64,000 nucleotides of DNA from Escherichia coli (GTDB taxonomy: Bacteria > Pseudomonadota > Gammaproteobacteria > Enterobacterales > Enterobacteriaceae), in the NCBI RefSeq assembly GCF_030013595.1, contig NZ_CP122768.1. One strand, 5' to 3'. The notes below the pieces were generated by a model, which saw only the letters and a program-made list of their open reading frames with translations, was not told where the DNA came from and did not search any database. Positions within the stretch are counted from its first letter, which is position 1, and the number at the start of each line of letters is the position of its first letter. This document shows positions 24,731 through 61,956 of the stretch, piece by piece. The translations under genes were made by a program, and so were the position numbers.

Positions 24731-24808
24731 TAATTTATTCCATGTCACACTTTTCGCATCTTTGTTATGCTATGGTTATTTCATACCATAAGCCTAATGG
24801 AGCGAATT

Positions 24809-25825: not shown

Positions 25826-25834
25826 GGAACGACC

Positions 25835-43635: not shown

Positions 43636-43650
43636 TTGACGACTCCTGTC

Positions 43651-45219: not shown

Positions 45220-45556
45220 CATGACTCCTTGCTCATCGCATGAAGACTCCGAGAGTGAACCCCGTTAGAAAGGGTCACACGCATGCCCCAATACAAAATT
45301 ATTTGCTCGCCTCTATCGTTGCCATTTCATCAAAAGAGGAAAAGACAATGATAAAAAAGTTACAAATATGTTAATGAATAAACCAAATTGATCCCGTAAT
45401 TATATTACGCCGCAAAATCCTTACAATAAACAGGTTTTTATTGAGCAAATTTGCATTTTTCGACAGTGATCAATTTATAGCGAAATTGTCACGATCTCAC
45501 CAATTTGATCTACGACAATTTATCGTGTTTTGCAGATTTTTTTCAAGAATTAAAAA

Positions 45557-45570
45557 TTGATTTATATCAA
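45557..45570 (-). promoter_or_regulatory. FNR-type site in cydA upstream regulatory region
   Basis: TTGATttatATCAA perfect FNR consensus. Confidence 0.45.
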
Positions 45571-46024
45571 AATCAACCAAATATGTTAATTATGTATAAA
45601 CCATAGATCATTGGTAATTTTATTGTTAATTTATTGTGAAATATTTATGCAACACAATTATTACAATGAAAAAGTATAGATAAAAAACCAGTGTTTTATT
45701 TAACAGAACCGCCCTATCCACTTTTTATAATACCAATTGATTAGAGTAGCCAATTTGTTGCTATTTTACATAACATATTTTTATCAAAGTTAATTGATTG
45801 TTGCCTTTATGAGCACCGGCCGTAAGCCCGTTATGTTATTGTTTCATTAGTAATAATCACTTAAATGTATCGATGAAACAGGTATGACTTAGCGGGAGTG
45901 ATTGTTTCTGAGTGAACAGAGACCACTTTCGCCTGATAAATGAAAAATGAGCGATTTTTGCAAGTTAGTTTTTCTATAGCCGAGTACGCTCAGCGCCTCG
46001 CTTGATTACAATGAGGTTGCTGCT

Positions 46025-46969
46025 ATGAGTCCTGATAATATCAGTTCTGCTGTCAATCGCTTCTCAGGTTGGCCATCTAATGATCCTCTAAAAACAGATA
46101 AAGAATCAATGACATCACCCATGACTGTGCAGGTAATAAAGATGATTGCCGCCATCCTTGACCCACATCGGATAGTCGTTGGAATCGATACACTTTATAC
46201 AACGCAGCGCGAAACATTTACCTCAGAGAGTCAACAGCTCATTGAATCAGCATTGCAAACACTTCATGTGATGAATTTAAATAACCTGGAAACAAATCTC
46301 GATGAGGAAGGTCACTATCTGGCTTTTGGATATAACGTTGACACTCCTGACAGAATAACCGTTTCTGCTTATAATGAAAAAAAGCCTGGCTGCTATGGCC
46401 AATGTCTTTTAATACAGGATGACGAAACAGACTTATTTAACCTGATAAAAGTTAAAATTTTTGAAGCCAGGCATAATTATGTCGCTCAATTGATGAGCGA
46501 TCCGGAATTTATGTTCAAATTTAGTTATAGCGCTCAACAAAATAGATTAGAACCTCATCTTCTGGTTCCCACTTATTTCCCTCTAAAAACAAACGAACCG
46601 GTTACGCAAGAGGATGTACTGTTACTTTATCGTTTCTTTAAAATGGATGGTGATTTTAATATATTAACATCAGATGAATACATGAGTATCATGACACCTC
46701 TAATGAAGTGTGAGCGTAGCATCCACGACCACAACAGGTATGTGACGGGCAAAGATCCCCTTCTTCTGGACTATCCTCCTTCTGGTAACCAGATATATTT
46801 CCATATTTTTCCTGACGAATCAGCAACACTAGTCCTTTATTTTTCAAACAATGACATTGAATGTTTCGTCTTTGAAAGAGATATTCCGAGCCAGTATCGC
46901 TTTTTCAAAATGTTTACCAATCTGGCACTGGTTATTGATCAGTTAACCGATGCCAATCAAATACTTTAA
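46025..46969 (+). CDS. Hypothetical protein, AT-rich accessory gene, no recognised domain
   Basis: 314-aa ORF in low-GC DNA where long random ORFs are unlikely; Ser/Pro/Asn-rich N-terminus. Confidence 0.6.
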   Translation: MSPDNISSAVNRFSGWPSNDPLKTDKESMTSPMTVQVIKMIAAILDPHRIVVGIDTLYTTQRETFTSESQQLIESALQTLHVMNLNNLETNLDEEGHYLAFGYNVDTPDRITVSAYNEKKPGCYGQCLLIQDDETDLFNLIKVKIFEARHNYVAQLMSDPEFMFKFSYSAQQNRLEPHLLVPTYFPLKTNEPVTQEDVLLLYRFFKMDGDFNILTSDEYMSIMTPLMKCERSIHDHNRYVTGKDPLLLDYPPSGNQIYFHIFPDESATLVLYFSNNDIECFVFERDIPSQYRFFKMFTNLALVIDQLTDANQIL

Positions 46970-47049
46970 TTTTTATATATTCCCTGTGGCAAATATTGCT
47001 AAACAATGCCCGGGGATTAATTTTTATTACTCACGGAAAGATTTAAATA

Positions 47050-47472
47050 ATGATCCCATCTCAAATCTCTTTCAACACCCTTCCTGTCAATGCAACATAC
47101 GCTTCAGAGACAACAGTTGACACACAAAAATTCTCTGACATCCTCTACTCAGCGGGGTGTTCCCTAAAGGATCTGGCTTATCTGAGCAGATGTCTGGCAT
47201 CAATACATCCGACTATCGCCAAAAACATTTATGAAACAGAAAATCTCAGCGATCAAAAATTACTACATATTGATTGCCGTAGTACAAATGAAATCAAGAT
47301 AAATATCTTTTTTGGTCAACAACGAGAAGGATTAATTGAAATTAGTTCTGACACAGTCATTTTTTCGATACTGTCTTCATTGATTGACTCCACCATTTCT
47401 AAATTTCAACACCAAAACCCCGTTAACGGTTCTGTAAATCCTGACCTATTGTATGAGGATTATACTGATTAA
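47050..47472 (+). CDS. Hypothetical protein, AT-rich accessory gene, no recognised domain
   Basis: 140-aa ORF 80 nt downstream of previous ORF, same strand, same low GC. Confidence 0.5.
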   Translation: MIPSQISFNTLPVNATYASETTVDTQKFSDILYSAGCSLKDLAYLSRCLASIHPTIAKNIYETENLSDQKLLHIDCRSTNEIKINIFFGQQREGLIEISSDTVIFSILSSLIDSTISKFQHQNPVNGSVNPDLLYEDYTD

Positions 47473-48019
47473 ATCCCTCCTGTCGCGAAAAATGGCCTGC
47501 GTTATTGCCAGACGTAATAAAACTTTTGATTAACGTTTCTCGTACTGGTAGCACCTTCATGTACTTTTCTTTTTTACGAAAAATCAAAAGAGCTAACAAA
47601 GGTCATAATTCGCATGAATCATTAATTATTTGTTATTTTCAACATTATTTTTACATTAAGCAGAGATGAATTGCAGTGAAATTCGACTTAATTTTTATGA
47701 AATGCATTTACTCATGGCTAAAGCCACGTCACAAAAATGCAAATTAGAAGTTGATCACAATTATCTCAATACATCAAATCAAGTTAATTTTAAAAATTTA
47801 ACATTCATGACACTAGTTGACATAACACACTGAATTAAAATGAGAATTTGGAAACACACTTTAAACAATCATTTCCCGAAAGACATTTTGAAAATAGATC
47901 AATTGCAACATTACGGTCAGATAAAGACACTCCTGTGATATTAAACCTGTGCCGTTATGAACGGCCATAAATACGACGTGTGTAACTTATTTTACTCTCT
48001 GTCTTACAAAGGATTACCC

Positions 48020-48469
48020 ATGAAGAAAGCAACACTTGTGATTGGCGTTATTGGCGCGGACTGCCATGCAGTAGGCAATAAAGTTCTGGACCGCGTTTTT
48101 AGCAACCATGGCTTCAGAGTCATTAATCTGGGCGTAATGGTCAGCCAGGACGAATATATTGATGCTGCCATTGAAACTGGCGCTGACGCGATTGTCGTCT
48201 CCTCTATCTATGGGCATGGCGATATCGACTGTCTGGGCATGCGCGAACGCTGCATCGAGCGTGGACTGGGTGACATCCTGCTCTATGTGGGCGGTAACCT
48301 GGTGGTCGGAAAACATGACTTCGCTGACGTGGAAACCAAATTTAAAGAGATGGGATTTGATCGCGTCTTTGCCCCAAGTCATGACTTAGAAGATGTTTGT
48401 CAGCTGATGGCCCACGATATCAACCAACGTCATGACGTTGATACTCGCATTCTTGAAGAGGCAATCTGA
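48020..48469 (+). CDS. Glutamate mutase sigma (S) subunit, B12-binding (methylaspartate mutase S chain)
   Basis: 149 aa from [21 protein letters not shown] (B12-binding DxHxxG motif). Confidence 0.85.
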
Positions 48470-49857
48470 TGCAAATCGTCTCTGTCGATATTGGATCGAC
48501 GTGGACCAAAGCAGCCCTCTTCGCCCGGGAGGGGGACGCGTTAACGTTGGTTAACCACGTACTGACCCCAACCACCACCCATCATCTGGCGAAGGGGTTT
48601 TTCTCCAGCCTGAACCTGGTGTTAAACGTAGATAATGCCCTCCCCCTGTTTAACAGCGGTGAGGTTACATTGAAGTATTCCTCCTCTGCCAAAGGTGGGC
48701 TGGCGGTTGCCGCAATGGGATTGGTGCCTTCTATCACCCTGGAAACCGCGAAAGTAACCGCTCACTCTGCGGGGGCTAAAATTGCGCAATATTACTCCTA
48801 CAAGCTGAACCGCCGTGATATCCAGGCACTGGAAGAAACGCAGCCCGATATTCTCTTGTTCACCGGCGGCACCGACGGCGGAGAAGAAAGCTACGGCCTG
48901 AATAACGCCCGTGTGCTGGCAGAATCCAAACTCGACTGCGCCATTATTTATGCCGGAAACCGGGATATTCAGGACGAAGTGCAGGAGATCCTAGGGCATA
49001 AAGACCTGACCATCGTCGACAACGTTCTGCCCGATCTTGACCATCCGAACCCTTTAGCCGCACGCCAGGCTATCTGCGACATATTCCTTAAACGCATCGT
49101 TAAAGGGAAAGGGCTGGATGTCGTTGTTGATAAAACAGGCGAAGAACCAATGCCGACACCATGGACGGTCTTTGAACTGGTTAAGGCAATCAGTAACGTC
49201 GATCACAGCTGGAAAGAGTTCATGCTGATCGACATGGGCGGCGCAACCACCGATGTCTATTCCGCCTGTGCCAACACGCTCTCGCCCGACACCGTTTTAC
49301 ACGGCGTACCGGAACCCTTCGTGAAACGGACGGTGGAAGGCGATCTGGGAATGCGCGTCTCGGCAATGGTGGTTGGTGAAAGTGCGAAAGAGTTAGTCAA
49401 TGTGAATTTTGCTCAGCAACCCGCACAGCTGGACGCTTTTTATCATTACCTCCGTCATCTAGTCGCTCATCCCGACTACTTACCCGCGAATGCAGAAGAA
49501 AAATATTTCGATACCGTCCTGGCCGGACTGTGTGTGGGTTATGCCACCGAAAGACATGCGGGCACCAAAAAAGAGGTCTGCACCTGCGTCGGCAATGTCG
49601 ATTTACAGATGGGACGTGACCTGACAACCGTGCGTAAAGTCGTCGGATCCGGCGGATGGCTCTCGCGTGCCAGTCAGTTCGATATGCATCACTGGTTGAA
49701 ATACCGCGAGTTAAACGACGACGGTAAACGCATTCTCTTACCGACCGAATTTGAATATTACCGCGATTCCCGGGGGCTATTACCACTGCTGGCAAACGTC
49801 GCCAGAGTCGATCCTCTGGCCGCCGCGCGCACCAGTATTCAATGCTTAACCCTATAA
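48469..49857 (+). CDS. Glutamate mutase accessory protein L (MutL/GlmL)
   Basis: 462 aa; sits between S and E subunits as in clostridial clusters. Confidence 0.75.
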   Translation: MQIVSVDIGSTWTKAALFAREGDALTLVNHVLTPTTTHHLAKGFFSSLNLVLNVDNALPLFNSGEVTLKYSSSAKGGLAVAAMGLVPSITLETAKVTAHSAGAKIAQYYSYKLNRRDIQALEETQPDILLFTGGTDGGEESYGLNNARVLAESKLDCAIIYAGNRDIQDEVQEILGHKDLTIVDNVLPDLDHPNPLAARQAICDIFLKRIVKGKGLDVVVDKTGEEPMPTPWTVFELVKAISNVDHSWKEFMLIDMGGATTDVYSACANTLSPDTVLHGVPEPFVKRTVEGDLGMRVSAMVVGESAKELVNVNFAQQPAQLDAFYHYLRHLVAHPDYLPANAEEKYFDTVLAGLCVGYATERHAGTKKEVCTCVGNVDLQMGRDLTTVRKVVGSGGWLSRASQFDMHHWLKYRELNDDGKRILLPTEFEYYRDSRGLLPLLANVARVDPLAAARTSIQCLTL

Positions 49858-49875
49858 CAATTAAGGCTGCAATCA

Positions 49876-51321
49876 ATGGAACTTCGAAATAAGAAATTAA
49901 CCCATGACGAATTCATGACCGAGCGGCAACAGGTACTGAAAACCTGGGAAACCGGCAAGGATGTTGAAAACTTTGAAGATGGCGTTAAATACCAACAAAC
50001 CATTCCTGAGCATAAACGCTTCTCTCTTGCGCTGTTGAAAGCAGACAAGGAAGGTAAAACCCTTAGCCAACCGCGCGCAGGTGTGGCGCTGATGGACGAA
50101 CACATCGAACTACTGAAAACACTACAAGAAGAGTGCGATCTGCTGCCGAGCACTATCGATGCATATACCCGTCTGAATCGGTACGAAGAAGCGGCTGTAG
50201 GGATTAAAAAATCCATCGAAGCCGGAACCTCTAAACTGAACGGTTTGCCGGTAGTTAACCATGGCGTCGCAGCTTGCCGTCGCCTCACCGAAACCCTGCA
50301 AAAACCGCTACAGATCCGCCACGGCACGCCAGATGCGCGTCTGCTGGCTGAAATCTCAATGGCCAGCGGCTTTACCAGTTATGAAGGCGGTGGCATTTCC
50401 TACAACATTCCGTATGCCAAACGCGTAACGCTGGAAAAATCGATCCGCGACTGGCAGTACTGCGACCGTTTAATGGGGATGTATGAAGAACACGGGATCC
50501 GCATCAACCGCGAACCGTTTGGCCCACTAACGGGTACGCTGATCCCGCCGTTTATCTCGCACTCTATCGCGATAATCGAAGGCTTGCTGGCGCTGGAACA
50601 GGGTGTGAAATCTATCACCGTTGGTTATGGACAGGTCGGCAGCCTGACGCAGGATGTTGCGGCGATCCAGTCTCTGCGTGAACTTGCACACGAATATTTT
50701 CAGAGCTATGGCTATACCGACTATGAATTAAGTACCGTGTTTCACCAGTGGATGGGCGGCTTTCCGGAAGACGAATCGAAAGCGTTCGCTATTATCTCCT
50801 GGGGCGCAGCCGTCGCGGGGATGTCTGGTGCCACCAAAGTCATCACCAAAAGTCCGCACGAAGCCTGGGGCATCCCGACTGCCGCTGCCAACATTCAGGG
50901 GCTGAAAGCCTCCCGCCAGATGCTCAACATGGTCAACGAGCAGAAATTCCCGCCGTGCCCTGCGGTTGAACTGGAAATTGAACTGATTAAGAGCGAGGTT
51001 CGCGCGGTACTGAATAAAGTGTTCGAACTGGGTAATGGTGATATTGCGCGCGGTACGGTGCTGGCATTTGAAGCGGGCGTACTGGATGTGCCGTTTGCGC
51101 CAGCCGCCTGCAACGCGGGCAAAATTCTTCCGGTCCGTGACAACACCGGCGCGATACGCGTACTGGAAGCCGGAGCCGTTCCATTGCCAAAAGATATTCT
51201 CGACCTCCACCACGATTACGTTGCTGAACGCGCACGCTTTGAAGGACGCCAACCGACATTCCAGATGGTTGTAGATGACATCAATGCTGTATCCCACAGT
51301 AAATTAATAGGAAGACCATAA
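49876..51321 (+). CDS. Glutamate mutase epsilon (E) subunit (methylaspartate mutase E chain)
   Basis: 481 aa TIM-barrel mutase. Confidence 0.85.
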   Translation: MELRNKKLTHDEFMTERQQVLKTWETGKDVENFEDGVKYQQTIPEHKRFSLALLKADKEGKTLSQPRAGVALMDEHIELLKTLQEECDLLPSTIDAYTRLNRYEEAAVGIKKSIEAGTSKLNGLPVVNHGVAACRRLTETLQKPLQIRHGTPDARLLAEISMASGFTSYEGGGISYNIPYAKRVTLEKSIRDWQYCDRLMGMYEEHGIRINREPFGPLTGTLIPPFISHSIAIIEGLLALEQGVKSITVGYGQVGSLTQDVAAIQSLRELAHEYFQSYGYTDYELSTVFHQWMGGFPEDESKAFAIISWGAAVAGMSGATKVITKSPHEAWGIPTAAANIQGLKASRQMLNMVNEQKFPPCPAVELEIELIKSEVRAVLNKVFELGNGDIARGTVLAFEAGVLDVPFAPAACNAGKILPVRDNTGAIRVLEAGAVPLPKDILDLHHDYVAERARFEGRQPTFQMVVDDINAVSHSKLIGRP

Positions 51322-52562
51322 TGAAAATAAAACAGGCTCTGTTCACCGCTGGCTACTCCTCATTCTATTTCGATGACCAGCAGGCGATAAAAAACGGAGC
51401 GGGTCATGACGGCTTTTTTTATACCGGGGAGCCAGTAACACAGGGGTTTAACGCCGTACGTCAGGCCGGGGAGTGCGTATCGGTACAGTTGATTCTGGAA
51501 AACGGCGCGGTCGCCGTAGGTGACTGTGCTGCCGTACAGTATTCCGGGGCAGGTGGTCGCGATCCACTGTTCCTCGCAGAGCACTTTATTCCGTTCCTCA
51601 ACGACCATATCAAGCCATTACTGGTAGGCCGCGATGTGGATGCTTTCCTGCCGAATGCCCGTTTCTTCGACAAATTGCGTATTGACGGCAACTTGCTACA
51701 TACCGCCGTGCGCTACGGATTATCACAGGCGCTGCTTGATGCTACCGCGCTGGCAACCGGCCGTCTGAAAACTGAAGTAGTTTGCGATGAATGGCAGTTG
51801 CCACGCGTGGCGGAATCCATTCCATTATTTGGTCAGAGCGGTGACGATCGATATATCGCCGTCGATAAGATGATCCTTAAGGGCATCGACGTGCTGCCCC
51901 ATGCACTGATTAATAACGTCGAAGAGAAACTAGGCTTTAAAGGTGAAAAACTGCGCGAATATGTCCGCTGGCTGTCGGATCGTATTCTGAGCAAGCGCAC
52001 CAGCGCACGCTACCACCCTACCCTGCACATCGATGTATACGGCACTATCGGTCTGATCTTCGATATGGATCCGCTTCGCTGTGCGCAATACATCGCCAGC
52101 CTGGAAAAAGAAGCGCAAGGCCTGCCGCTCTACATTGAAGGGCCGGTCGATGCCGGTAACAAGCCCGATCAAATTCGCCTGCTGACCGCGATTACCAAAG
52201 AGCTGACGCGCCTCGGTTCCGGCGTGAAAATTGTGGCCGATGAATGGTGTAACACCTACCAGGATATTGTTGATTTTACTGATGCCGCCAGTTGCCACAT
52301 GGTGCAAATCAAAACCCCGGATCTGGGCAGTATTCACAACATCGTCGATGCGGTTCTTTACTGCAACAGCCACAGCATGGAAGCGTACCAGGGCGGCACC
52401 TGCAATGAAACTGATGTCAGTGCCTGCACCTGTGTCCACGTCGCCCTTGCCGCTCGCCCTATGCGTATGCTGGTAAAGCCAGGGATGGGCTTTGACGAAG
52501 GCCTCGATATCGTCTTCAACGAAATGAATCGTACTATCGCGCTGTTGCAGGCTAAGGATTAA
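51321..52562 (+). CDS. 3-Methylaspartate ammonia-lyase
   Basis: 413 aa enolase-superfamily protein, MKIKQALFTAGYSSFYFDDQQAIKNGAGHDGF. Confidence 0.85.
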   Translation: MKIKQALFTAGYSSFYFDDQQAIKNGAGHDGFFYTGEPVTQGFNAVRQAGECVSVQLILENGAVAVGDCAAVQYSGAGGRDPLFLAEHFIPFLNDHIKPLLVGRDVDAFLPNARFFDKLRIDGNLLHTAVRYGLSQALLDATALATGRLKTEVVCDEWQLPRVAESIPLFGQSGDDRYIAVDKMILKGIDVLPHALINNVEEKLGFKGEKLREYVRWLSDRILSKRTSARYHPTLHIDVYGTIGLIFDMDPLRCAQYIASLEKEAQGLPLYIEGPVDAGNKPDQIRLLTAITKELTRLGSGVKIVADEWCNTYQDIVDFTDAASCHMVQIKTPDLGSIHNIVDAVLYCNSHSMEAYQGGTCNETDVSACTCVHVALAARPMRMLVKPGMGFDEGLDIVFNEMNRTIALLQAKD

Positions 52563-52565
52563 CAA

Positions 52566-53936
52566 ATGGCTCGTTCTTTTAAAGTCTTATCGCCAACGGC
52601 AATCCTCGGGTATGGATTCCCGGAAGAGAGCTTCCGTAAAGCGATGGCAGAATCGCCCGATCTGATCGCCGTTGATGCAGGCTCTTCCGATCCTGGCCCC
52701 CACTACCTCGGGGCGGGCAAACCGTTTACCGATCGCGCAGGGGTCAAGCGCGATCTGCGCTATATGATCACCGCAGGCGTGCAAAATAATATACCGGTGG
52801 TGATCGGAACGGCTGGCGGTTCTGGTGCCGCACCACACCTGGAGTGGTGCCGAGAAATAATTCATGAGATTGCCCGGGAAGAGCACCTCTCGTTCTCGAT
52901 GGCGTTGATCCCGGCAGACGTTGACAAAGCCATCGTCCACCAGGCGCTGGATAACGGCAAAATCACGGCGCTGGATTTTGTCCCGCCGTTAACCCACGAC
53001 GCGATTGACGAAAGTACGTATATCGTCGCGCAAATGGGCATCGAACCCTTCCAGCAGGCGCTGAAAGAAGGCGCGCAAGTGGTGCTGGGCGGGCGCGCTT
53101 ACGACCCGGCCTGCTTTGCTGCGCTACCGATCATGCAAGGCTTTGATGAAGGTCTGGCGCTGCATTGTGGGAAAATCCTTGAATGCGCGGCAATCGCCGC
53201 AACGCCCGGCTCAGGCTCTGACTGGGCGATGGGCATCATTGATGACAACGGCTTTACGCTGAAGACATTTAATCCGAAGCGTAAATTTACCGAAACGTCA
53301 GCGGCTGCACACACACTGTATGAGAAATCCGATCCCTACTTCCTGCCAGGACCTGGCGGCGTGTTGAACCTGAAAGACTGCACATTTAAAGCGGTCAATG
53401 ACGGCGAAGTGTACGTCAGCGGTTCTAAGCATGAAGAAACGCCGTATGCCCTGAAACTGGAAGGTGCGCGACGAGTGGGCTTCCGCTGTCTGACCATCGC
53501 AGGAACGCGCGACCCGATCATGATCGCCGGGATCGATAAAATCATCGATGAAGTCAAAACCAGCGTTTCGCGTAACCTGTCGCTCGACGATGACAGCATT
53601 CACATCAATTTCCACCTGTACGGCAAAAACGGGGTGATGGGCGACCATGAACCGATGCAAACTGCCGGGCATGAGCTGGGGATTGTCCTTGATGTAGTTG
53701 CACCGACCCAGGAAATTGCCAATAGCGTTTGCTCGCTGGTGCGCTCTACCATGCTGCACTACGGCTATGAAAACCGCATCGCTACCGCAGGCAATCTGGC
53801 GTTCCCGTTCTCCCCTTCTGATATCCAGGGCGGGCCGGTATACGAATTTTCCATATATCACCTGATTGAAGCCAACGACGCTCTGCGTTTTGATTTCCAT
53901 ATTGAACAGGTGACGCCAGAAGGAGTTCAGGCATGA
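52566..53936 (+). CDS. DUF1446 (AtuA-like) family protein
   Basis: 456 aa; family assignment from recalled sequence features. Confidence 0.6.
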   Translation: MARSFKVLSPTAILGYGFPEESFRKAMAESPDLIAVDAGSSDPGPHYLGAGKPFTDRAGVKRDLRYMITAGVQNNIPVVIGTAGGSGAAPHLEWCREIIHEIAREEHLSFSMALIPADVDKAIVHQALDNGKITALDFVPPLTHDAIDESTYIVAQMGIEPFQQALKEGAQVVLGGRAYDPACFAALPIMQGFDEGLALHCGKILECAAIAATPGSGSDWAMGIIDDNGFTLKTFNPKRKFTETSAAAHTLYEKSDPYFLPGPGGVLNLKDCTFKAVNDGEVYVSGSKHEETPYALKLEGARRVGFRCLTIAGTRDPIMIAGIDKIIDEVKTSVSRNLSLDDDSIHINFHLYGKNGVMGDHEPMQTAGHELGIVLDVVAPTQEIANSVCSLVRSTMLHYGYENRIATAGNLAFPFSPSDIQGGPVYEFSIYHLIEANDALRFDFHIEQVTPEGVQA

Positions 53937-54250
53937 AACAGTCAATTGTCTCACTGGCGCAAGTCATTCGTTCGAAAAATGCCGGACCTTACGAACTGGT
54001 TTTAGATATTTTATTTAAAACCAAAGAAAACTATGAGCGTGTCAAATCATCAGGGCAATTAACCCCAGAACTGATCGCGCGCTTATATCATGTTGAACCT
54101 GACTTTATTCATCGTATTGTCTGGTTTGATCCTTCTAACGCAGTAAAAATCGTCATGCCACGAGATATTATCTCCGGGAATGTAGGTGACAATGATGTCT
54201 ATGGTGCACAGCAACATGCACCTTTATTAAATATGAGTTTCGATTTGTAA
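53933..54250 (+). CDS. DUF4387 family protein, usual partner of DUF1446
   Basis: 105 aa, start overlaps upstream stop. Confidence 0.55.
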   Translation: MKQSIVSLAQVIRSKNAGPYELVLDILFKTKENYERVKSSGQLTPELIARLYHVEPDFIHRIVWFDPSNAVKIVMPRDIISGNVGDNDVYGAQQHAPLLNMSFDL

Positions 54251-54398
54251 AAATCCGAATACTTTTAGCCAACTGACATCCCGTCACTTATTGCAGTTCA
54301 ACACTTCAGCTATTTGTAAGGTTGTAATAGCAGGTAGATGCCTGAATCTCTATTCAGGCATCTACTTCTCCTGATTCTGATTTATCGCCGCGCACCTG

Positions 54399-55691
54399 AT
54401 GGAGGAAAAAATGAAGAAAATAAGTTTAACCACGATGATTCTTTTGGCGCTGGTACTTGGAATGATTATCGGCGTAGTGCTCAATAACACTGCTTCACCG
54501 GAAACCGCAAAACTCTATGCGCAAGAAATATCGATATTCACGACGATTTTCTTACGACTGATAAAAATGATTATCGCTCCGTTAGTGGTCTCTACCCTGG
54601 TGGTAGGTATAGCTAAAATGGGCGATGCCAAAGCCCTTGGTCGTATTTTTTCTAAAACACTCTTTTTATTTATTTGCGCCTCATTGCTGTCAATTGCCTT
54701 AGGCTTGATAACAGTAAATTTCTTCATGCCAGGCACAGGAATTAATTTTGTTGCACACGGAGCCGAAACCACCGGAGTGGTCGCGTCAGAACCCTTTACG
54801 CTAAAAGTATTTATTTCGCATGCTTTCCCCACCAGCATTGTCGATGCCATGGCGCACAATGAAATTTTGCAAATCGTGGTGTTCTCAATTTTCCTCGGCT
54901 GTAGCCTGACGGCGATTGGCGAGAAAGCCAGCGCCATCGTTCACGCCTTAGATTCGCTGGCACATGCCATGTTAAAGCTCACTGGCTACGTCATGCTCTT
55001 CGCTCCCCTGACCGTATTCGCTGCTATTTCAGCATTGATTGCTGAACGAGGACTGGCAGTTATGGTGAGCGCCGGGATCTTTATGGGTGAATTTTATTTC
55101 ACCATGTTATTACTTTGGGTGCTGCTTATCGGTCTGGCCATCGTTTATGTTGGCCCCTGCATCAGACGCCTGACCCGCGCCCTTTCGGAACCCGCCCTGC
55201 TGGCATTTACCACATCCAGTTCTGAAGCGGCTTTTCCAGGAACGCTTGAAAAACTGGAGCAATTTGGCGTTTCCCCCAAAATTGCCAGCTTTGTCTTACC
55301 CATTGGCTACTCATTTAATCTCGTTGGATCAATGGCCTACTGCTCCTTCGCCACAGTTTTCATCGCCCAGGCCTGCAATATCCATTTATCCATCGGTGAG
55401 CAAATCACCATGCTGTTGATCCTGATGTTGACCTCGAAAGGAATGGCTGGCGTACCACGCGCCTCAATGGTGGTTATCGCCGCCACGCTCAACCAGTTCA
55501 ATATTCCGGAAGCGGGGCTGATCTTGCTGATGGGCGTTGATCCGTTCCTTGATATGGGGCGTTCCGCGACAAACGTCATGAGCAACGCAATGGGCGCTGC
55601 GATGGTGAGTCGGTGGGAAGGCGAACATTTCGGCGAGGGCTGTCGGGGTAAAGCATTAAAACCCAATGAATCGAACGTTGCTCTGCCCTGA
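54399..55691 (+). CDS. Dicarboxylate/amino acid:cation symporter (DAACS; GltP/DctA family)
   Basis: 430 aa, polytopic, SDF-family motif TSKGMAGVP; start may be 54411. Confidence 0.8.
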   Translation: MEEKMKKISLTTMILLALVLGMIIGVVLNNTASPETAKLYAQEISIFTTIFLRLIKMIIAPLVVSTLVVGIAKMGDAKALGRIFSKTLFLFICASLLSIALGLITVNFFMPGTGINFVAHGAETTGVVASEPFTLKVFISHAFPTSIVDAMAHNEILQIVVFSIFLGCSLTAIGEKASAIVHALDSLAHAMLKLTGYVMLFAPLTVFAAISALIAERGLAVMVSAGIFMGEFYFTMLLLWVLLIGLAIVYVGPCIRRLTRALSEPALLAFTTSSSEAAFPGTLEKLEQFGVSPKIASFVLPIGYSFNLVGSMAYCSFATVFIAQACNIHLSIGEQITMLLILMLTSKGMAGVPRASMVVIAATLNQFNIPEAGLILLMGVDPFLDMGRSATNVMSNAMGAAMVSRWEGEHFGEGCRGKALKPNESNVALP

Positions 55692-55798
55692 GGGGGATCT
55701 TAAGCAATCAGAAGCCAATGACTACGCATTTTTATAAGCCGGATCATGAAGTTAGACGGCAATTAAGTAACACTAACGTTTAAGGTGAAAAGTGAAAT

Positions 55799-57451
55799 AT
55801 GTCAAAACCATTTATCTGGCAAGAACCGTTTCTACAAAATAAAGACGGTACAGAATATACATTAATTAGCGATCAGCATATTACAGTAACGGAATTAGAC
55901 GGCGAAGAAGTGATAAAAATCGCTCCTGAAGCATTAACGCTGCTTGCCCGGCAGGCATTTTATGAAGCCTCTTTTTTCTTACGTTCCGCTCATTTGCAAC
56001 AGGTCGCCAGCATTCTTAACGATCCGCAGGCCAGTAGTAATGATAAATACGTTGCGTTGCAGTTATTACGTAATGCTGAAGTCTCAGCAAAAGGGGTATT
56101 ACCCAACTGTCAGGATACCGGCACCGCAACTATTGTTGCCAGTAAAGGGCAACAGATATGGACGGGAGGTAACGACGCTGAAGCCTTAAGCAAAGGCATT
56201 TACAGTACTTTCCAGGAAAATAATCTGCGCTTTTCACAAAATGCGCCGCTGGATATGTATACCGAAGTCAATACGCAAACCAATCTCCCGGCGCAGATTG
56301 ATATCAGCGCTGTCGCTGGTAATGAGTACCATTTTCTCTGTGTTAATAAAGGGGGCGGCTCCGCCAATAAAGCCGCACTTTATCAGGAAACCAAATCCTT
56401 ATTGCAACCAGAAAAACTGACCGCATTTTTAATCGAAAAAATGAAATCGCTGGGCACCGCTGCCTGCCCGCCTTACCACATCGCCTTTGTCGTCGGAGGG
56501 CTTTCAGCCGATCAAACCTTAAAAGTTGCCAAGCTGGCCTCAACGAAATATTACGACAATTTGCCCACCAGCGGAAACGAGCAAGGACAAGCATTCCGTG
56601 ATATTGAGCTGGAAAAAGTGTTGCTCGAGGCCAGTCAGCAATTTGGTATTGGTGCGCAATTTGGAGGTAAATATTTCGCTCATGATATTCGCGTCATTCG
56701 TCTGCCGCGTCACGGTGGCTCCTGCCCGATAGCTATGGCGCTCTCCTGTTCTGCCGATCGCAATATCAAAGCAAAAATTAACAAGCACGGTATCTGGCTG
56801 GAAAAACTCGAACACAATCCGGGGCAATATATTCCAGCCTCACTGCGGGAAGAAAATCACGCGCAACATGTACAGCTGGATCTAAACCGTCCGTTGCGTG
56901 ACGTGATGCAGGATCTCGCCAGATTACCGGTAGGTACCCGCGTGTCGTTAAGTGGTCCCATCGTAGTGGCGCGCGATATCGCCCACGCCAAAATAAAAGC
57001 GCGGCTGGATAGCGGCGAACCGATGCCGGATTACCTGAAGCATCATATTGTCTATTACGCTGGCCCGGCGAAAACACCGGAGAACATGGCCTGCGGTTCA
57101 CTAGGTCCAACCACGGGCGGTCGAATGGACGGTTATGTCGATACCTTCCAGGCTGCTGGCGGCAGTCTGGTAATGTTATCGAAAGGTAACCGCAGCCAGC
57201 AGGTCACCGATGCCTGTCACAAACATGGCGGCTTCAATCTGGGAAGTATTGGCGGTGCAGCTGCGTTACTGGCGCAAGAATATGTCAAAAGTCTGCGTTG
57301 CCTGGAATACCCGGAGCTGGGTATGGAAGCGGTGTGGATGATGGAAGTGGAAAATCTGCCCGCATTCATCCTGGTAGATGATAAAGGCAATAATTTCTTT
57401 AGTCAGTTTGAGCAGCAACACCGCTGCGCCAGTTGCCCTGCGGGACATTAA
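55799..57451 (+). CDS. fumD: Class I fumarate hydratase paralog; likely mesaconase (FumD-like)
   Basis: 550 aa, Fe-S class I fumarase family; embedded in methylaspartate cluster. Confidence 0.8.
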
Positions 57452-57460
57452 GGAAAATGA

Positions 57461-58063
57461 ATGGAAGCGCGAATTTCAACTGAACGGCATGTGCAGCGCC
57501 AGCAGAAATTGAAGGAACAGGTCGATACGCGCATCGCGGCGGCGATAGAGAAAAAAGGGATTTTGATTGTTTTCACCGGCAATGGCAAAGGGAAATCCAC
57601 TGCCGCGTTTGGTACTGTGACGCGCGCGGTGGGTCATGGCAAAACGGTGGGGGTTGCGCAGTACATCAAGGGGCAATGGGACAACGGCGAATACAACCTT
57701 CTCCAGCCGCTGGGGGTTGAGTTTCATATTATGGGAACCGGTTTTACCTGGGAGACACAGAACCGGCAAGCGGATATCGACGCGGCGAAAGAGGTCTGGT
57801 CGGAAAGCAAACGGATGCTGGCTGACAAGCGTTACGACTTAGTGGTGCTTGATGAGCTGACCTATATGCTGGCTTACCATTATCTGGATACCGAAGAAGT
57901 GATCGCTTCTCTGCAAAACCGCCCGGCACAACAAAGTGTCATTGTCACCGGACGCGGTTGCCACAGTCAGATATTAAAAATGGCGGATACGGTCAGCGAA
58001 ATCCGCCCCGTCAAACATGCTTTTGATAACGGCATTCAGGCCCAGCCGGGTATCGACTGGTAA
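57461..58063 (+). CDS. Cob(I)alamin adenosyltransferase (CobA/BtuR family)
   Basis: 200 aa, P-loop FTGNGKGKSTAAFG. Confidence 0.85.
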   Translation: MEARISTERHVQRQQKLKEQVDTRIAAAIEKKGILIVFTGNGKGKSTAAFGTVTRAVGHGKTVGVAQYIKGQWDNGEYNLLQPLGVEFHIMGTGFTWETQNRQADIDAAKEVWSESKRMLADKRYDLVVLDELTYMLAYHYLDTEEVIASLQNRPAQQSVIVTGRGCHSQILKMADTVSEIRPVKHAFDNGIQAQPGIDW

Positions 58064-58065
58064 TA

Positions 58066-58096
58066 ACTGCGCCTGGCATCCCGCCAGGCGCAGGTT
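58066..58096. terminator. Bidirectional terminator between adenosyltransferase and LysR genes
   Basis: CTGCGCCTGGC-atcc-CGCCAGGCGCAG hairpin with flanking A/T runs. Confidence 0.5.
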
Positions 58097-59002
58097 TTAC
58101 ATCTCCTGCGGTACAACCGATTTCGCCAGCAACCATTCACGAAATTGCTGCAAGTGCGGTGAGTCAGACTTCTCTTCCTGCCACGTCATAATAAAACGAT
58201 TACCGGTACGAATAGGCACATCACAGGGGATCACCATATCGCCACTATCCAAATCATGTTGAATAGCGAACCGTGGTAACAGCGCCACGCCGAGATTCGA
58301 GCGCACGGCGGCAATCAGCATTGAAAGCAAATCGAAACGTGGTCCGTTGTTGACCAGCGGACTGCTAACGCCAGATAAGGCAAACCACTCTTCCCAGCCA
58401 GTAATACGGGTACTTTGATGCAGAAGTGGTAACTCTGTAAGCAGTTCTGCCACTGACAGTTTTTGATCGGACATTGCAAGCAAACTGCCGCTGCATACCG
58501 GCAAAATCTCCTCATAAAAGAGATATTCTACTTCCGCCCAGGGCGCGCAAAAATTTTCGCGCATAATGACAGCATCGTACTCCCGATTAAGAAAATCGCC
58601 GTTATTAGCTAAAGAGTGAATATTAACAATAATATCGGGATGTAACTTTGTGAATTCATGTAAATTTGGGATTAACCAGTGAGTACTAAACGTAGGATTA
58701 ACGGCAAGTTCAATAACCTGAACCGTAGGCTGCCAGGTCATAATGGTATTGGTATCGCGTTCCAGCTTATTTAATGTTTCTTTTACTATCCCCAGGTAAT
58801 ACTTCCCTGCATCATTAAGAAAAATGCGTTTTTTAGAGTGTGAAAATAACGGAGTATGTAAAAATTCCTCCAGCGCACTTACTTGTCTGAATACAGCACT
58901 TTGGGTTAACGCTAACTCCTCTGCCGCTCTGGTATAGCTTTCATGACGTGCGACGACCTCAAAAGTCACCAGCTGCTCCGTTTTAGGTATTTTTCCTCGC
59001 AT
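58097..59002 (-). CDS. LysR-family transcriptional regulator
   Basis: 301 aa from MRGKIPKTEQL; HTH TQSAVFRQVSALE. Confidence 0.8.
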   Translation of the reverse strand: MRGKIPKTEQLVTFEVVARHESYTRAAEELALTQSAVFRQVSALEEFLHTPLFSHSKKRIFLNDAGKYYLGIVKETLNKLERDTNTIMTWQPTVQVIELAVNPTFSTHWLIPNLHEFTKLHPDIIVNIHSLANNGDFLNREYDAVIMRENFCAPWAEVEYLFYEEILPVCSGSLLAMSDQKLSVAELLTELPLLHQSTRITGWEEWFALSGVSSPLVNNGPRFDLLSMLIAAVRSNLGVALLPRFAIQHDLDSGDMVIPCDVPIRTGNRFIMTWQEEKSDSPHLQQFREWLLAKSVVPQEM

Positions 59003-59213
59003 AATGCCGTCCGTGAAAAAATAACAATTCAAAAATTATTTTATAAAAAACAGTAGCACTAATGAATATCATAATTCAAATAAACAAACCAGTCAGCTAT
59101 ATGTCTAACCAGGAAAATAAAGTGACAATAATCCTAAAACAGGAATTTCACCTCAGTTATCCGCATGCAATACTTTAAAGCTATTATTGCAAGAATATTA
59201 TTCATATACATGA

Positions 59214-59341
59214 ATATACTCTAAATAAGTCAAGTTGCAGGAAGGGAACAAATAATGAATTTCCAGAAGCTTACATAAGTAAGTGACCTGGGTGAGCGAA
59301 CATCGATGCAGCACATGCAACTTGAATTATGACAAGTATAC
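59214..59341. repeat. ERIC-like element, divergent copy
   Basis: Shares ...GCTTACATAAGTAAGTGAC(C)TGGGTGAGCGAAC...GCAGCACATGCAACTTGAA with ERIC at 13414-13542. Confidence 0.65.
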
Positions 59342-59591
59342 AATGATAAATTTATATACCCTATGTTATATATTATCTATGTCCGGTTAAATTGAATGAG
59401 TCATGGCCTTAAAAGACTTCACAAAAGATAATTCCTCTTTAACAATAAGCCAGATTTACCACTTGTAAAACTTGCTATCGCCACATACACTACGCGCGTT
59501 TTCTTTCCCTTTTGCTGGCTGCTGACCGGAAAGACAAAATTACCCTCGCAATACAGGGGGTTGTTTAACGTCTATATTTCAGGACAGCGTT

Positions 59592-60989
59592 ATGCATCAT
59601 CTTTCAAGGCTTGATAAAGCCTTTCTGCGCAAAGGGATCCAACTTTCCCGCGCCAACAATATTGTTTCATTATCTCGTCCATCAGGTGCCAGTGCCCGCG
59701 TACTGCTGCCGGACGAACTGCCGCTGGAAGAAAAAGCAGTAACACAACTGCTTGATTTTGCAGAAGTGAAGCTACCAGACCACCCAGGTTATGTGCGCCA
59801 GACGTGCGCGACGCCAGATTTTCATCCCGGCAATGGAGTCCCCGTTGGCGCGGTGGTGGCCTCAACGCCGGATTTAGTCATTCCCGCCGCCATCGGCACC
59901 GATATTTCTTGTGGCATGCGGCTGCTGACGACCGGATTAACACTTGAGCAAGCCGAAGCGCATAAAGACGTCATCGCTCAGCGGTTAACGCAAGTGCTAC
60001 TGCAAAATGAGCGCGATGTTCCGTTATCCGCACAGGCGTTCACCGCGCTTTTTGATGGCGGACCGGCAGATTGCGTGTCGACCTTGCCATCAGCAGGTCT
60101 CTGGACACGCACGAATATCCCCCGAATGGTACAAGAGATTGACCGCTGCATTGGGCTTAACGAGCATAACAGTCATTCGCGTTATGCCCCACCCGCCCTG
60201 CTGGCAACGGACCGCGCATTACTCCGCGATCCTTGTCTGGGTACGCCGGGTTCAGGTAATCATTTTATTGAACTTCAGGTCGTTGATAGCGTGGTTGATC
60301 GCCATGTAGCCTGGCAACAAGGGCTGAAAACAGGCGATATTGTGGTGATGATCCACAGTGGATCGCGAGATGTTGGCTTTTACGTCGGAAGACGCTGGAT
60401 GGATCGCGCCCGTGCTGAATGGCCCACCGGACATAAACATCCACAAAGCGGGTTATATGGTCTGGCAGGCGGACTGGCGGAGGAATATCTACAAGCGATA
60501 GGAATGGCGGCGCGTTACGCGTGGTTAAATCGCGTCACAATTGCCGAAATGGTGCGCGTATGTCTCGCCAATCTCTTTCATCAGGACAATTCGCATCTGG
60601 TGGTGGATGTGCCGCATAACATCATCCTTCGCGAGCATGAAATGAATATTCATCGCAAAGGTGCAACACCGGCACGAGTGGGCGATCTGGCATTAATCCC
60701 CGGTTCAATGGGCGATTATTCGTGGCTTGCAGTCGGTTGCGGCAACCCGGAGTGGCTGTGGTCATGCAGTCACGGAGCAGGACGCAGCCAGCGTCGACAG
60801 GCCATGCGCTCAAGCGCGACTGAAGAGTCAACGCTGCCGTGGCAATGCGTCACATTGCGTGAAGAACGACGTCTTGAAGAAGCGCCAGCGGCTTATAAAG
60901 ATATTGGTCCGGTTATCGAAGCCCAACAAGAAGCCGGATTAATTCAGCCAGCGGTCAGATTTCGACCGTGGTTAACGTTTAAGGCATAA
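59592..60989 (+). CDS. RtcB-family RNA ligase homolog (orphan)
   Basis: 465 aa; motifs GTDISCGMRL, GSGNHFIEL, HSGSRDVG, SHGAGRS. Confidence 0.75.
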   Translation: MHHLSRLDKAFLRKGIQLSRANNIVSLSRPSGASARVLLPDELPLEEKAVTQLLDFAEVKLPDHPGYVRQTCATPDFHPGNGVPVGAVVASTPDLVIPAAIGTDISCGMRLLTTGLTLEQAEAHKDVIAQRLTQVLLQNERDVPLSAQAFTALFDGGPADCVSTLPSAGLWTRTNIPRMVQEIDRCIGLNEHNSHSRYAPPALLATDRALLRDPCLGTPGSGNHFIELQVVDSVVDRHVAWQQGLKTGDIVVMIHSGSRDVGFYVGRRWMDRARAEWPTGHKHPQSGLYGLAGGLAEEYLQAIGMAARYAWLNRVTIAEMVRVCLANLFHQDNSHLVVDVPHNIILREHEMNIHRKGATPARVGDLALIPGSMGDYSWLAVGCGNPEWLWSCSHGAGRSQRRQAMRSSATEESTLPWQCVTLREERRLEEAPAAYKDIGPVIEAQQEAGLIQPAVRFRPWLTFKA

Positions 60990-61086
60990 AAAAGGCCATC
61001 ATACGATGGCCAACCATGTCGAAACCGACAGCCCTTCGCCATTCCTGTAGAGGGAAGCGGCGAGGGCTATTTCTTATTACAGATAT
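60987..61086 (-). ncRNA. sdhX: sucD 3'UTR with intrinsic terminator; SdhX (RybD) sRNA locus
   Basis: Minus-strand GGCCAUCGUAUGAUGGCC hairpin plus U6 directly downstream of sucD stop. Confidence 0.55.
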
Positions 61087-61956
61087 TTATTTCAGAACAG
61101 TTTTCAGTGCTTCACCGATATCCGCCAGGCTGCGAACGGTTTTCACGCCTGCGGCTTCCAGAGCAGCGAATTTCTCATCCGCAGTCCCTTTCCCACCGGC
61201 AATGATCGCACCCGCGTGGCCCATACGTTTGCCTTTCGGCGCAGTCACACCAGCGATGTAACCCACAACTGGCTTGGTAACATGCTCTTTGATGTACGCA
61301 GCCGCTTCTTCTTCAGCGCTACCGCCGATCTCACCGATCATCACGATCGCTTCGGTCTGCGGATCTTTTTCGAACATTTCGAGGATGTCGATAAAGTTAG
61401 AGCCAGGGATCGGGTCACCGCCGATACCAACACAGGTCGACTGACCGAAACCGTAATCCGTGGTCTGTTTCACCGCTTCATAGGTCAGTGTACCGGAACG
61501 GGAAACGATACCCACTTTACCCGGTTTGTGAATGTGACCAGGCTGGATACCGATTTTGCATTCACCCGGAGTGATAACGCCTGGGCAGTTCGGGCCGATC
61601 ATGCGAACGCCCGCTTCATCCAGTTTCACCTTCACGGTCAGCATATCCAGCGTCGGGATGCCTTCAGTGATGGTGATAATCAGTTTGATGCCTGCATCAA
61701 TAGCTTCCAGAATGGAGTCTTTGCAGAACGGTGCTGGTACGTAGATAACAGAAGCGGTAGCGCCAGTAGCAGCAACAGCTTCACGCACGGTATTGAACAC
61801 CGGCAGGCCGAGGTGGGTAGTACCGCCTTTACCTGGGGTTACGCCGCCAACCATTTTGGTGCCGTATGCAATGGCCTGTTCAGAGTGGAAAGTCCCCTGG
61901 CTACCGGTAAAGCCCTGGCAGATAACCTTGGTGTTTTTATCAATTAAAATGGACAT
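61087..61956 (-). CDS. sucD: Succinyl-CoA synthetase alpha subunit
   Basis: 289 aa. Confidence 0.95.

Follow-up and report, generated by a model that had tools for sequence, protein, structure and literature searches.

A methylaspartate-pathway gene cluster between cydA and sucD of Escherichia coli, probably resident at this site since before the genus arose

In E. coli K-12 the interval between sucD and cydA holds mngR, mngA and mngB. A different gene set is found there in another E. coli strain (assembly GCF_030013595.1, contig NZ_CP122768.1), from which a stretch of 64,000 nucleotides, here called the window, was analyzed. What is this gene set, and did it enter the locus recently or was it lost from K-12? 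An earlier reading made from the sequence alone had favored a recent arrival, namely a strain-specific accessory island of about 15 kb replacing mngR-mngAB. The comparisons described below lead to another answer. The interval is the already described B12-dependent glutamate-fermentation cluster, an old resident which K-12 has lost.

Extent and junctions of the interval

Homology to K-12 MG1655 stops at position 45595 of the window, 376 bp upstream of the start codon of cydA (ATG, 45219), and restarts at 60984, just past the K-12 mngR stop codon. The interval unlike K-12 comprises positions 45596–60983 (15,388 bp). Both junctions of the sequence-only reading were found, with the left limit moved outwards from 46000 to 45596 by this comparison. 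On the right, the rtcB stop codon (60987–60989) lies 4 nt from the sucD terminator hairpin (60994–61011, minus strand, terminator scan), which forms the right junction of the variable interval, as had been proposed. The flanking conserved core genes cydA (43651–45219) and sucD (61087–61956), both on the minus strand, were taken from a RefSeq record 99.95% identical to window positions 43000–63000, and cydA also from the list of open reading frames. The 13 annotated genes of this record together with NCBIfam matches agree with the gene content listed before. The presence of mngR-mngA-mngB in the K-12 interval was likewise verified. The K-12 locus agrees with the window in its flanks and in the sucD terminator, which directly follows the last gene, but inside the interval the two have no sequence in common. 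Using tblastn and blastn, no mng, hut or TPR homology was detected in the entire 64-kb window.

The spacer upstream of cydA (45220–45874) is ancestral. In blastn comparisons its homology to B2/TPR-type loci ends at 45860, that to Salmonella arizonae extends through 45637 and that to Escherichia whittamii through 45874. Thus the sequence past the K-12 breakpoint is common to the window, E. whittamii and Salmonella. The junction of rtcB stop codon and terminator also occurs in E. whittamii and Escherichia sp. E1V33, and its sequence gtttaagg/cataaaaaaggcc is common to the window, E. whittamii, E1V33 and the O157-type and hut-type loci of E. coli. Since both window junctions are found in outgroups, K-12 represents the derived state.

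The GC content is 49.6% for the whole window and 51% for the operon. An atypical base composition was observed only for the cassette at 45875–47613, which had correctly been recognized as AT-rich (38% GC), and for the spacer between lysR and rtcB (59021–59461, 30% GC). Between cassette and operon lies the ancestral glmS upstream (promoter) region (47614–48019, plus strand, approximately 31% GC) which shows 72% identity to its counterpart in E. whittamii and 61% to the one in Salmonella arizonae.

The operon and its predicted pathway

The operon is encoded on the plus strand in the order glmS-glmL-glmE-mal-cmlA-cmlB-symporter-fumD-cobO. The genes glmS (48020–48469), glmL (48469–49857) and glmE (49876–51321) carry these names in the RefSeq annotation and match NCBIfam equivalog models above the cut-off. 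The matches to NF002612 (254 bits, cut-off 110), TIGR01503 (865 bits, cut-off 390) and NF040745 (510 bits, cut-off 475) identify a B12-dependent glutamate (methylaspartate) mutase GlmS/GlmE with its accessory protein GlmL. The next gene, mal (51321–52562), encodes a methylaspartate ammonia-lyase (TIGR01502, 541 bits, cut-off 286). It is followed by a pair annotated as AtuA/DUF1446 family (cmlA, 52566–53936) and DUF4387 (cmlB, 53933–54250). Over their full lengths, the first product matches chain A of the PDB entries 9erq and 9evf, "Citramalate lyase, subunit A (cmlA)" (E value 6.6e-289, approximately 91% identity), and the second matches chain B, "subunit B (cmlB)" (E value 5e-57). By these matches the "AtuA/DUF4387" pair is the predicted two-subunit citramalate lyase CmlAB. 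The protein in these entries is that of Raoultella planticola, studied in the Berg laboratory. R. planticola cmlAB has been used for the cleavage of citramalate to pyruvate and acetate (bioRxiv 10.64898/2026.01.16.699985).

A dicarboxylate/amino acid:cation symporter of the DAACS family (GltP/DctA-like; 54411–55691) is annotated next in RefSeq. Its NCBIfam matches to GltP and DctA both remain under the cut-off, and the presumed substrate, glutamate, is deduced from the gene context. The gene fumD (55799–57451) encodes a class I fumarase, the predicted mesaconase (NF011921, 1286 bits, cut-off 1060) and is 98.6% identical at the nucleotide level to the O157:H7 gene for ECs0757, a protein which was characterized as mesaconase/fumarase (PMC4682846). 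The operon ends with cobO/cobA (57461–58063), an ATP:cob(I)alamin adenosyltransferase gene by its NCBIfam equivalog match above the cut-off, and a terminator hairpin at 58067–58093 (plus strand; terminator scan, inverted repeat I17). A LysR-family, GcvA-like regulator (58097–59002, minus strand; RefSeq annotation, best NCBIfam match to the GcvA subfamily below the cut-off) faces the operon convergently and is kept beside it in all enterobacterial loci.

From these family assignments and published enzymology the following pathway can be proposed. Glutamate would be imported by the symporter and converted by GlmS/GlmE to (2S,3S)-3-methylaspartate. The activity of the mutase would be maintained by GlmL, and adenosylcobalamin would be made by CobO from imported corrinoid. 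Methylaspartase would then remove ammonia to yield mesaconate, which would be hydrated by FumD to (S)-citramalate and finally cleaved to pyruvate and acetate by CmlAB. Presumably, the operon is controlled by the adjacent LysR protein. For E. coli itself a function is suggested only by constraint on the genes: dN/dS values of 0.02–0.03 for glmE and mal (0.02 for glmE) indicate strong purifying selection. In an O157:H7 strain, Kronen and Berg observed neither expression nor growth on glutamate (PMC4682846).

Genes and gene order from glmS through lysR are identical to those of the glutamate-fermentation cluster of O157:H7 and other Enterobacteriaceae described by Kronen and Berg in 2015 (PMC4682846). 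The O157:H7 chromosome is colinear with window positions 43000–59020 at 98.4% identity. It differs in the allele of the lysR upstream spacer and in the segment from lysR to sucD, in which the window has an intact rtcB but O157:H7 no more than fragments of hutH and rtcB. The same chemistry, from glutamate to pyruvate and acetate, is used by Clostridium tetanomorphum and C. tetani, whose cluster also contains GlmS/E, GlmL (MutL), Mal and a mesaconase of the class I fumarase type (PMC4682846). However, the clostridial mesaconase MesAB is split while FumD is a single chain, and the clostridial citramalate lyase is the citrate-lyase-type CitDEF, to which CmlAB is unrelated. The function of this pathway was already known.

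A cassette of orphan genes and a stand-alone rtcB

The limits of the cassette (45875–47613, plus strand) within the ancestral cydA-glmS spacer were obtained by alignment with the E. whittamii spacer. It contains the two orphan open reading frames orf314 (46025–46969) and orf140 (47050–47472), both on the plus strand, for which no Pfam, NCBIfam, PADLOC or PHROG match was found. Homologues with 65–98% identity are confined to Escherichia, and a search among 1.84 billion representatives returned only fragments of the same protein. The dN/dS values are 0.43–0.49 for orf314 and 0.21 for orf140. The cassette was found in 1,138 of the 5,426 complete E. coli genomes.

At the other end, rtcB (59592–60989, plus strand) encodes a stand-alone RtcB-family RNA ligase of 465 amino acids. 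The full-length domain PF01139 covers residues 63–464 (1.4e-94), and the motifs PDFHpG, CGmR, GSGNHF, HSGSR and sCsHGAGR align with the metal-binding and His-nucleophile positions of Thermus thermophilus RtcB (2epg). The protein shares the domain and the metal-binding/His-GMP motifs with E. coli RtcB of the rtcBA-rtcR operon and with the PrfH-associated RtcB2. In contrast to these, it falls well under the NCBIfam cut-offs of NF007153 and TIGR03073 (204 bits versus 407 for the E. coli RtcB model, 168 versus 272 for the PrfH-linked model), and no rtcA, rtcR or prfH lies beside the gene, whose neighbors are lysR and sucD. It belongs to a subfamily of approximately 465 amino acids common among Betaproteobacteria and Pseudomonas, where its closest relatives outside Escherichia are found (60–67% identity). 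The gene is present in 296 of the 5,426 genomes and has a dN/dS of 0.16–0.17. The cassette looks like an addition within Escherichia, and rtcB is perhaps another; no other part of the interval has this appearance.

Age and history of the locus

In order to judge the age of the cluster, its occurrence was determined in other species, one genome per species. The core from glm to lysR is flanked by cydA and sucD in E. whittamii, two more Escherichia species, Salmonella arizonae and diarizonae, many Citrobacter, the Klebsiella oxytoca group and Pseudescherichia, five genera in all. By this synteny in outgroups the core is ancestral across Escherichia, in conflict with an accessory island. In the single genomes scanned for E. 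albertii, E. fergusonii, E. marmotae and E. ruysiae the cluster was not seen. The nucleotide and synonymous identities of the cluster parallel those of the flanks: approximately 98–99% within E. coli, 85–92% to other Escherichia, 74–83% to Salmonella, Citrobacter and Klebsiella and 64–78% to Pseudescherichia. It is very likely, then, that the interval represents the enterobacterial methylaspartate-pathway cluster at a long-held position in the chromosome, between cydAB and sucABCD. If it was inherited vertically, it must have been lost many times independently, among others in S. enterica subsp. enterica, K. pneumoniae and approximately 79% of E. coli.

Two other explanations of the interval have to be weighed against this. 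That a horizontally acquired island replaced mngR-mngAB in one event in the lineage of this strain would fit the patchy distribution in E. coli (approximately 21%), the AT-rich cassette and lysR-rtcB spacer, the betaproteobacterial relationship of rtcB and the position of mng in the same interval of K-12. We nevertheless regard it as highly improbable. In five genera the same core is found at this site with its gene order kept, and it has diverged in proportion to the flanks. Its GC content equals the background, and both junctions are those of outgroup species. No integrase, transposase or other mobility gene is among the 13 annotated genes, and no tRNA or Rfam match was found at the interval. 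Direct repeats or integrase remnants, which had been suggested as marks of insertion, are absent from the borders, the only repeats being short and scattered. The cluster gave no phage match, and no copy on a phage or true plasmid was found. Furthermore, the cluster, rtcB and mngB-mngA-mngR stand together in 134 E. coli genomes, as in strain 98210 (L007), where cydA-cassette-glm operon-lysR-rtcB-mngB-mngA-mngR-sucD form one contiguous piece. Replacement of one set by the other is contradicted by this arrangement, with mng to the right of rtcB; K-12 has mng without the cluster. The glm cluster and mng are adjacent modules, each present or absent independently. Nor is the cluster strain-specific: at least 80% of window positions 44500–61500 is present in 1,116 of the 5,426 genomes, the cluster itself in about 1,116–1,138 (21%), and 26.5% of E. 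coli and many enterobacteria were reported to carry it (PMC4682846).

Alternatively, the cluster may have been transferred repeatedly between genera into the same site via the cydAB and sucCD flanks, so that synteny would reflect a recombination-friendly site and not descent. These flanks are 84–92% identical across genera, and within E. coli the locus does recombine, with flank haplotypes uncoupled from content: strain HS-02 has flanks 99.4% identical to those of the window yet carries mng. In a tree of concatenated GlmE, Mal and CmlA, Klebsiella, Citrobacter, Salmonella, Enterobacter and Buttiauxella are separated by short deep branches without a resolved order. Enterobacter, Lelliottia and Buttiauxella have the cluster away from cyd/suc, yet nest among the syntenic genera; thus, some transfer or relocation between genera must have occurred. 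On the other hand, the sequences in this tree group by genus, each genus being monophyletic, and synonymous identity drops in the same order as in the flanks. In enterobacteria, homologous recombination is strongly impeded when flanks diverge by 10–15%. Genus-specific extras, namely a PocR-like AraC regulator, SumT and an additional gene before fumD, argue for long separate histories. We therefore consider repeated transfer unlikely as a general explanation.

Under descent at an old site, the comparisons suggest the following history. The common ancestor of Escherichia, Salmonella, Citrobacter and the Klebsiella oxytoca group would already have had the core cluster between cydA and sucD. Escherichia would later have extended the locus at both ends, with a hut operon and rtcB towards sucD and the two-gene orphan cassette towards cydA, and in E. 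coli mngB-mngA-mngR would have come in between rtcB and the terminator of sucD. The loci of today would be differing deletion states of one array, which E. coli lineages exchange through homologous recombination within the conserved flanks and without mobility functions of the loci themselves. In the K-12 type mng alone remains. The B2 type has a TPR gene, with or without mng, and scars of glmS, hutU and rtcB. The O157 type, without mng, retains hut and rtcB only as scars, whereas the hut type, also without mng, has both intact. The composite type has rtcB and mng without hut, and the window type has rtcB without hut or mng. The scars agree with this scheme: the O157-type spacer is made of hutH and rtcB fragments, and B2-type loci contain glmS (plus), hutU (minus) and rtcB (plus) fragments in the order and orientation of the island, of which glmS is solid (E value 2e-6) and hutU and rtcB are short (E values 0.001–0.03). 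In this scheme the K-12, B2 and O157 forms are decay states, and K-12 keeps a derived breakpoint.

The window type is rare (approximately 10 of 5,426 genomes). Its lysR-rtcB spacer allele also occurs in the composite type, while other E. coli have an 8.6-kb hut operon at this position. To the hut/O157-type spacer it shows weak homology (65–69%) only in the lysR-proximal 120–210 bp, and tblastn detected no hut scars in it. The window form could have arisen from the composite form by a deletion of 5,609 bp, from TAAG at the rtcB stop to TAAG at the mngR stop, or it could retain a junction that never had mng. The window indeed equals L007 minus L007 positions 20415–26023 with a 4-bp TAAG microhomology, its island is closest to the composite haplotype on either side of the junction (99.0–99.7%), and genomes with the composite form outnumber those with the window form roughly tenfold (134 versus approximately 10). 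However, both stop codons dictate TAA, which leaves the microhomology with little weight. Moreover, hut-type E. coli, whose rtcB allele is 4% diverged, O157-type loci and two further Escherichia species have the identical junction. This junction type is therefore older than the composite form, and the deletion appears plausible but somewhat short of an even chance. In strain 23CRST031 a loss mediated by IS903B/IS1 was observed.

Gene content of the cydA-sucD interval and the encoded pathway

The genes of the interval were assigned using the ORF list and the annotation of a RefSeq chromosome which is 99.95% identical to the window over 43000-63000. Between cydA (43651-45219, minus strand) and sucD (61087-61956, minus strand) this revealed orf314 (46025-46969) and orf140 (47050-47472), followed by glmS (48020-48469), glmL (48469-49857), glmE (49876-51321), the methylaspartate ammonia-lyase gene mal (51321-52562), cmlA (52566-53936, labelled "AtuA family"), the DUF4387 gene cmlB (53933-54250), a DAACS symporter gene (54411-55691), the class I fumarase gene fumD (55799-57451) and cobO (57461-58063). 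The products of glmS, glmL, glmE, mal, fumD and cobO scored above the curated NCBIfam cut-offs. A strong terminator hairpin (58067-58093) is followed by lysR (58097-59002, minus strand) and rtcB (59592-60989). The GC content is 38% at 45875-47613, 51% in the operon and 30% in the lysR-rtcB spacer, compared to 49.6% for the whole window.

Homology to E. coli K-12 MG1655 stops at 45595 and restarts at 60984, immediately past the K-12 mngR stop codon. The differing interval comprises 45596-60983 (15,388 bp). The whole window is free of mng, hut and TPR sequence, and the rtcB stop codon directly abuts the sucD terminator (…GTTTAAGG / CATAAAAAAGGCCATCATACGATGGCC…). Thus, the observation that a gene set other than mngB-mngA-mngR, the occupant of this interval in K-12, lies between cydA and sucD is confirmed and was correctly placed.

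The cluster is already known and does not represent a new kind of system. A literature search with the O157 locus tags retrieved a single paper, by Kronen & Berg (PMC4682846), in which the cluster was reported for 26.5% of E. coli and 90.6% of O157:H7, FumD was shown to be a mesaconase and no expression of the cluster was found in an O157:H7 strain. That study did not settle what becomes of citramalate or what DUF1446 does. The AtuA/DUF4387 pair was suspected to be the missing citramalate lyase and its structure was predicted (pLDDT 84). This prediction was superfluous since a sequence search of the PDB found the solved CmlAB structure. Entries 9erq and 9evf describe the DUF1446/DUF4387 pair as "citramalate lyase subunits A and B (cmlA, cmlB)", and CmlA and CmlB of the window match this pair over the full length, CmlA with approximately 91% identity. 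In a 2026 preprint (bioRxiv 10.64898/2026.01.16.699985) cmlAB from Raoultella planticola was used for the conversion of citramalate to pyruvate and acetate. With this identification the pathway from glutamate to pyruvate and acetate appears, as judged from the sequence, to be fully encoded. The identity of CmlAB fills the pathway gap noted in 2015, and the "AtuA family" and "DUF4387" genes of RefSeq E. coli annotations are the two citramalate lyase subunits. Within E. coli, strong purifying selection acts on glmE and mal (dN/dS 0.02-0.03). A fifth of complete E. coli genomes retain this strongly constrained, B12-dependent route, which may matter in the gut and which laboratory strains lack.

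Age of the cluster and the state of K-12

A CmlA protein scan using one genome per species yielded 57 loci. In tblastn maps the gene order cydB-cydA-glmS-glmL-glmE-mal-cmlA-cmlB-symporter-(one extra gene)-fumD-cobO-lysR-…-sucD-sucC was observed, with the core between cyd and suc, in E. whittamii, Escherichia sp. E1V33 and MOD1-EC7003, Salmonella enterica subsp. arizonae and diarizonae, Klebsiella grimontii, michiganensis, spallanzanii and oxytoca, a dozen Citrobacter species and Pseudescherichia. Enterobacter, Lelliottia, Buttiauxella, Pluralibacter, Yersinia, Hafnia and Budvicia carry the cluster at other sites. Nucleotide identity to the window drops in parallel for the cluster genes and for the cyd and suc flanks, from 98-99% (flanks 98-100%) in other E. 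coli to 85-92% (96-99%) in other Escherichia species, 74-83% (84-92%) in Salmonella, Citrobacter and Klebsiella and 64-78% (82-88%) in Pseudescherichia. In a neighbour-joining tree of GlmE, Mal and CmlA the sequences formed groups by genus, and those of Yersinia, Hafnia and Budvicia lay outside. The core has long been resident between cydA and sucD.

Some genera possess additional genes at the locus. A PocR-like AraC regulator is encoded between lysR and sucD in Salmonella arizonae and Citrobacter, the latter also encoding a SumT methyltransferase. The symporter-fumD gap of Citrobacter and of other non-Escherichia genera contains a further gene, coding for a secreted protein (these extras are located at 16845-17747 of locus L033 and at 17994-19666 and 13287-14290 of locus L016). 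All three are absent from E. coli, where no remnants were detected.

The sequence-only reading had proposed a strain-specific island that replaced mngRAB. Strain specificity does not hold, since at least 80% of window 44500-61500 is present in 1,116 of 5,426 complete E. coli genomes. A replacement is contradicted by E. coli strain 98210, which carries the cluster, rtcB and mng together in the order cydA-orf314-orf140-glm operon-lysR-rtcB-mngB-mngA-mngR-sucD. The window corresponds to this composite locus (L007) minus its positions 20415-26023 (5,609 bp). In the K-12, TPR plus mng and composite contexts alike, the mng module is bounded by the stop codons of mngB and mngR; it is a neighbour of the cluster and not an allele of it. 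The border repeats and integrase remnants sought as traces of insertion did not turn up: the region showed no border repeat, flanking direct or inverted repeat, mobility gene, tRNA or Rfam family (cobalamin riboswitch included). Searches for phage or plasmid copies gave no true plasmid or phage carrying the region, the "plasmid" matches being chromosome-sized records (a 730-kb E. coli record and a 416-kb Salmonella replicon).

E. whittamii possesses window segment 45596-45874, which is missing from K-12. Salmonella arizonae matches the window as far as 45637, whereas the match between K-12 and Salmonella stops at K-12's own breakpoint. The rtcB-end/terminator junction was also found in E. whittamii and E1V33. 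Since outgroups share both junctions of the window, K-12 represents the derived state. No remnants of island genes were found in the 470-bp K-12-specific spacer. An ancestral metabolic cluster that underwent differential loss in E. coli describes the interval better than a strain-specific replacement does. The natural reading is mistaken here: the supposed island is the older arrangement, and it is the reference strain K-12 that is degraded.

Forms of the locus in E. coli

Among the 5,426 complete E. coli genomes, mngRAB was detected in 3,887 and the TPR-gene segment typical of B2 strains in 1,114, approximately 567 of them at ≥99% (the form with mng) and approximately 544 at 90-95% (the form without mng). 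The rtcB segment occurs in 296 genomes, in 144 together with the window-type lysR-rtcB spacer. The rtcB-mngB junction is found in 134 genomes and the window-like rtcB-terminator junction in 156. By subtraction (144 − 134, or 156 − 144), only about 10-12 genomes have the exact window configuration with intact rtcB, no hut and no mng. Every single module of this configuration is common in E. coli, though the combination is rare.

A full 8.8-kb hut segment between lysR and rtcB is present in 144 genomes. In strain LD67-1 (L006 16273-24013) this gap contains the operon hutU-permease-hutD-hutI-hutG-hutH. Its position next to the glm cluster would couple histidine breakdown to glutamate fermentation, adding a histidine route in these approximately 144 cluster-bearing genomes. 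K-12 lacks hut genes at the locus. O157:H7, E. whittamii and E1V33 retain only fragments of hutH, hutU and rtcB.

The remaining E. coli forms have arisen by decay. The 506-bp lysR-sucD spacer of the O157 type is built of pieces of hutH (residues 445-490 and 312-331, 87-90% identical) and rtcB (residues 375-398 and 451-462). Loci of the B2/TPR type share the cydA upstream sequence with the window up to 45860 and contain scars of glmS (residues 69-102, E 2e-6), of hutU on the opposite strand (E 0.001-0.009) and of rtcB (E 0.027), in the order and orientation of the full array. B2-type strains (Nissle 1917, NC101, ST1193) carry a TPR-repeat gene next to these short scars (L004 and L005, approximately 2862-5151). 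In E. coli 23CRST031 (L066 5693-8517) the cydA-sucD interval contains a truncated lysR with IS903B and a frameshifted IS1 at its sides; the entire cluster was recently lost here through an IS-mediated deletion.

In C. amalonaticus mngB-mngA-mngR is located on the cydA side of glmS (L049 1-4817), opposite to E. coli, and consequently mng entered the interval at different points in different genera. A related strain (L044 4563-4953) has only mngB and mngR scars at this position.

The DNA upstream of lysR (window 59003-59461 versus L002 16005-16412 and L006 16003-16410) diverges from 18 bp before the start codon, the alleles showing only 65-69% identity over approximately 200 bp. Regulation of lysR, and possibly of the operon, may therefore differ between the window/composite and the O157/hut types. 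The flanks of the locus (window 43000-45595 and 60984-63000) are unusually divergent among E. coli lineages (on the cydA side, identity to K-12 is 96.1%), and the alleles of mng are 4-7% apart between contexts. Flank haplotype is uncoupled from content: the flanks of strain HS-02, which contains mng, are 99.4% identical to the window. The divergent flanks and this uncoupling point to frequent recombination.

The AT-rich cassette and the solitary rtcB

The orphan cassette, and perhaps also rtcB, appear to be later additions. A defence-system reading of either was rejected, as PADLOC gave no match. The cassette occupies 45875-47613 within the ancestral cydA-glmS spacer, where E. whittamii has 312 bp. 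Its genes orf314 and orf140 matched no NCBIfam, PADLOC, PHROGs or Pfam family, and a word-indexed search as well as an exhaustive one of 1.84 billion representatives retrieved only Escherichia copies or fragments. The AlphaFold2 orphan model, based on a five-sequence alignment, reached a mean pLDDT of 51. The dN/dS values of 0.43-0.49 for orf314 and 0.21 for orf140 suggest that the genes are real but weakly constrained.

It seems improbable that the cassette is a genuinely new, Escherichia-restricted gene family with a function tied to the locus. In its favour, no relatives appeared among the 1.84 billion representatives, orf314 is intact at 314 codons in a constant position beside cydA across Escherichia lineages dS ~0.5 apart (dN/dS ~0.43), and cassette and glm operon co-occur almost one-to-one in E. 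coli (1,138 versus 1,116 genomes). The cassette might, for example, control or silence the neighbouring glm operon or the promoter region of cydAB.

A non-coli Escherichia locus (L065 9880-12562, Logan SRR11658232) contains cydA, an orf314 homologue (65% amino acid identity), an orf140 scar, a 258-aa ORF lacking a Pfam match and sucD, and no glm genes. Two contigs labelled as Collinsella (L008) and Citrobacter (L009) MAGs encode proteins 96-100% identical to those of the E. coli island, L009 including the Escherichia-only orphans. They are probably mis-binned E. coli DNA.

The rtcB gene encodes a full-length RtcB with conserved catalytic motifs, whose scores do not reach the cut-offs set for the characterised E. 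coli types. Its nearest further relatives are found in Betaproteobacteria and Pseudomonas with 60-67% identity.
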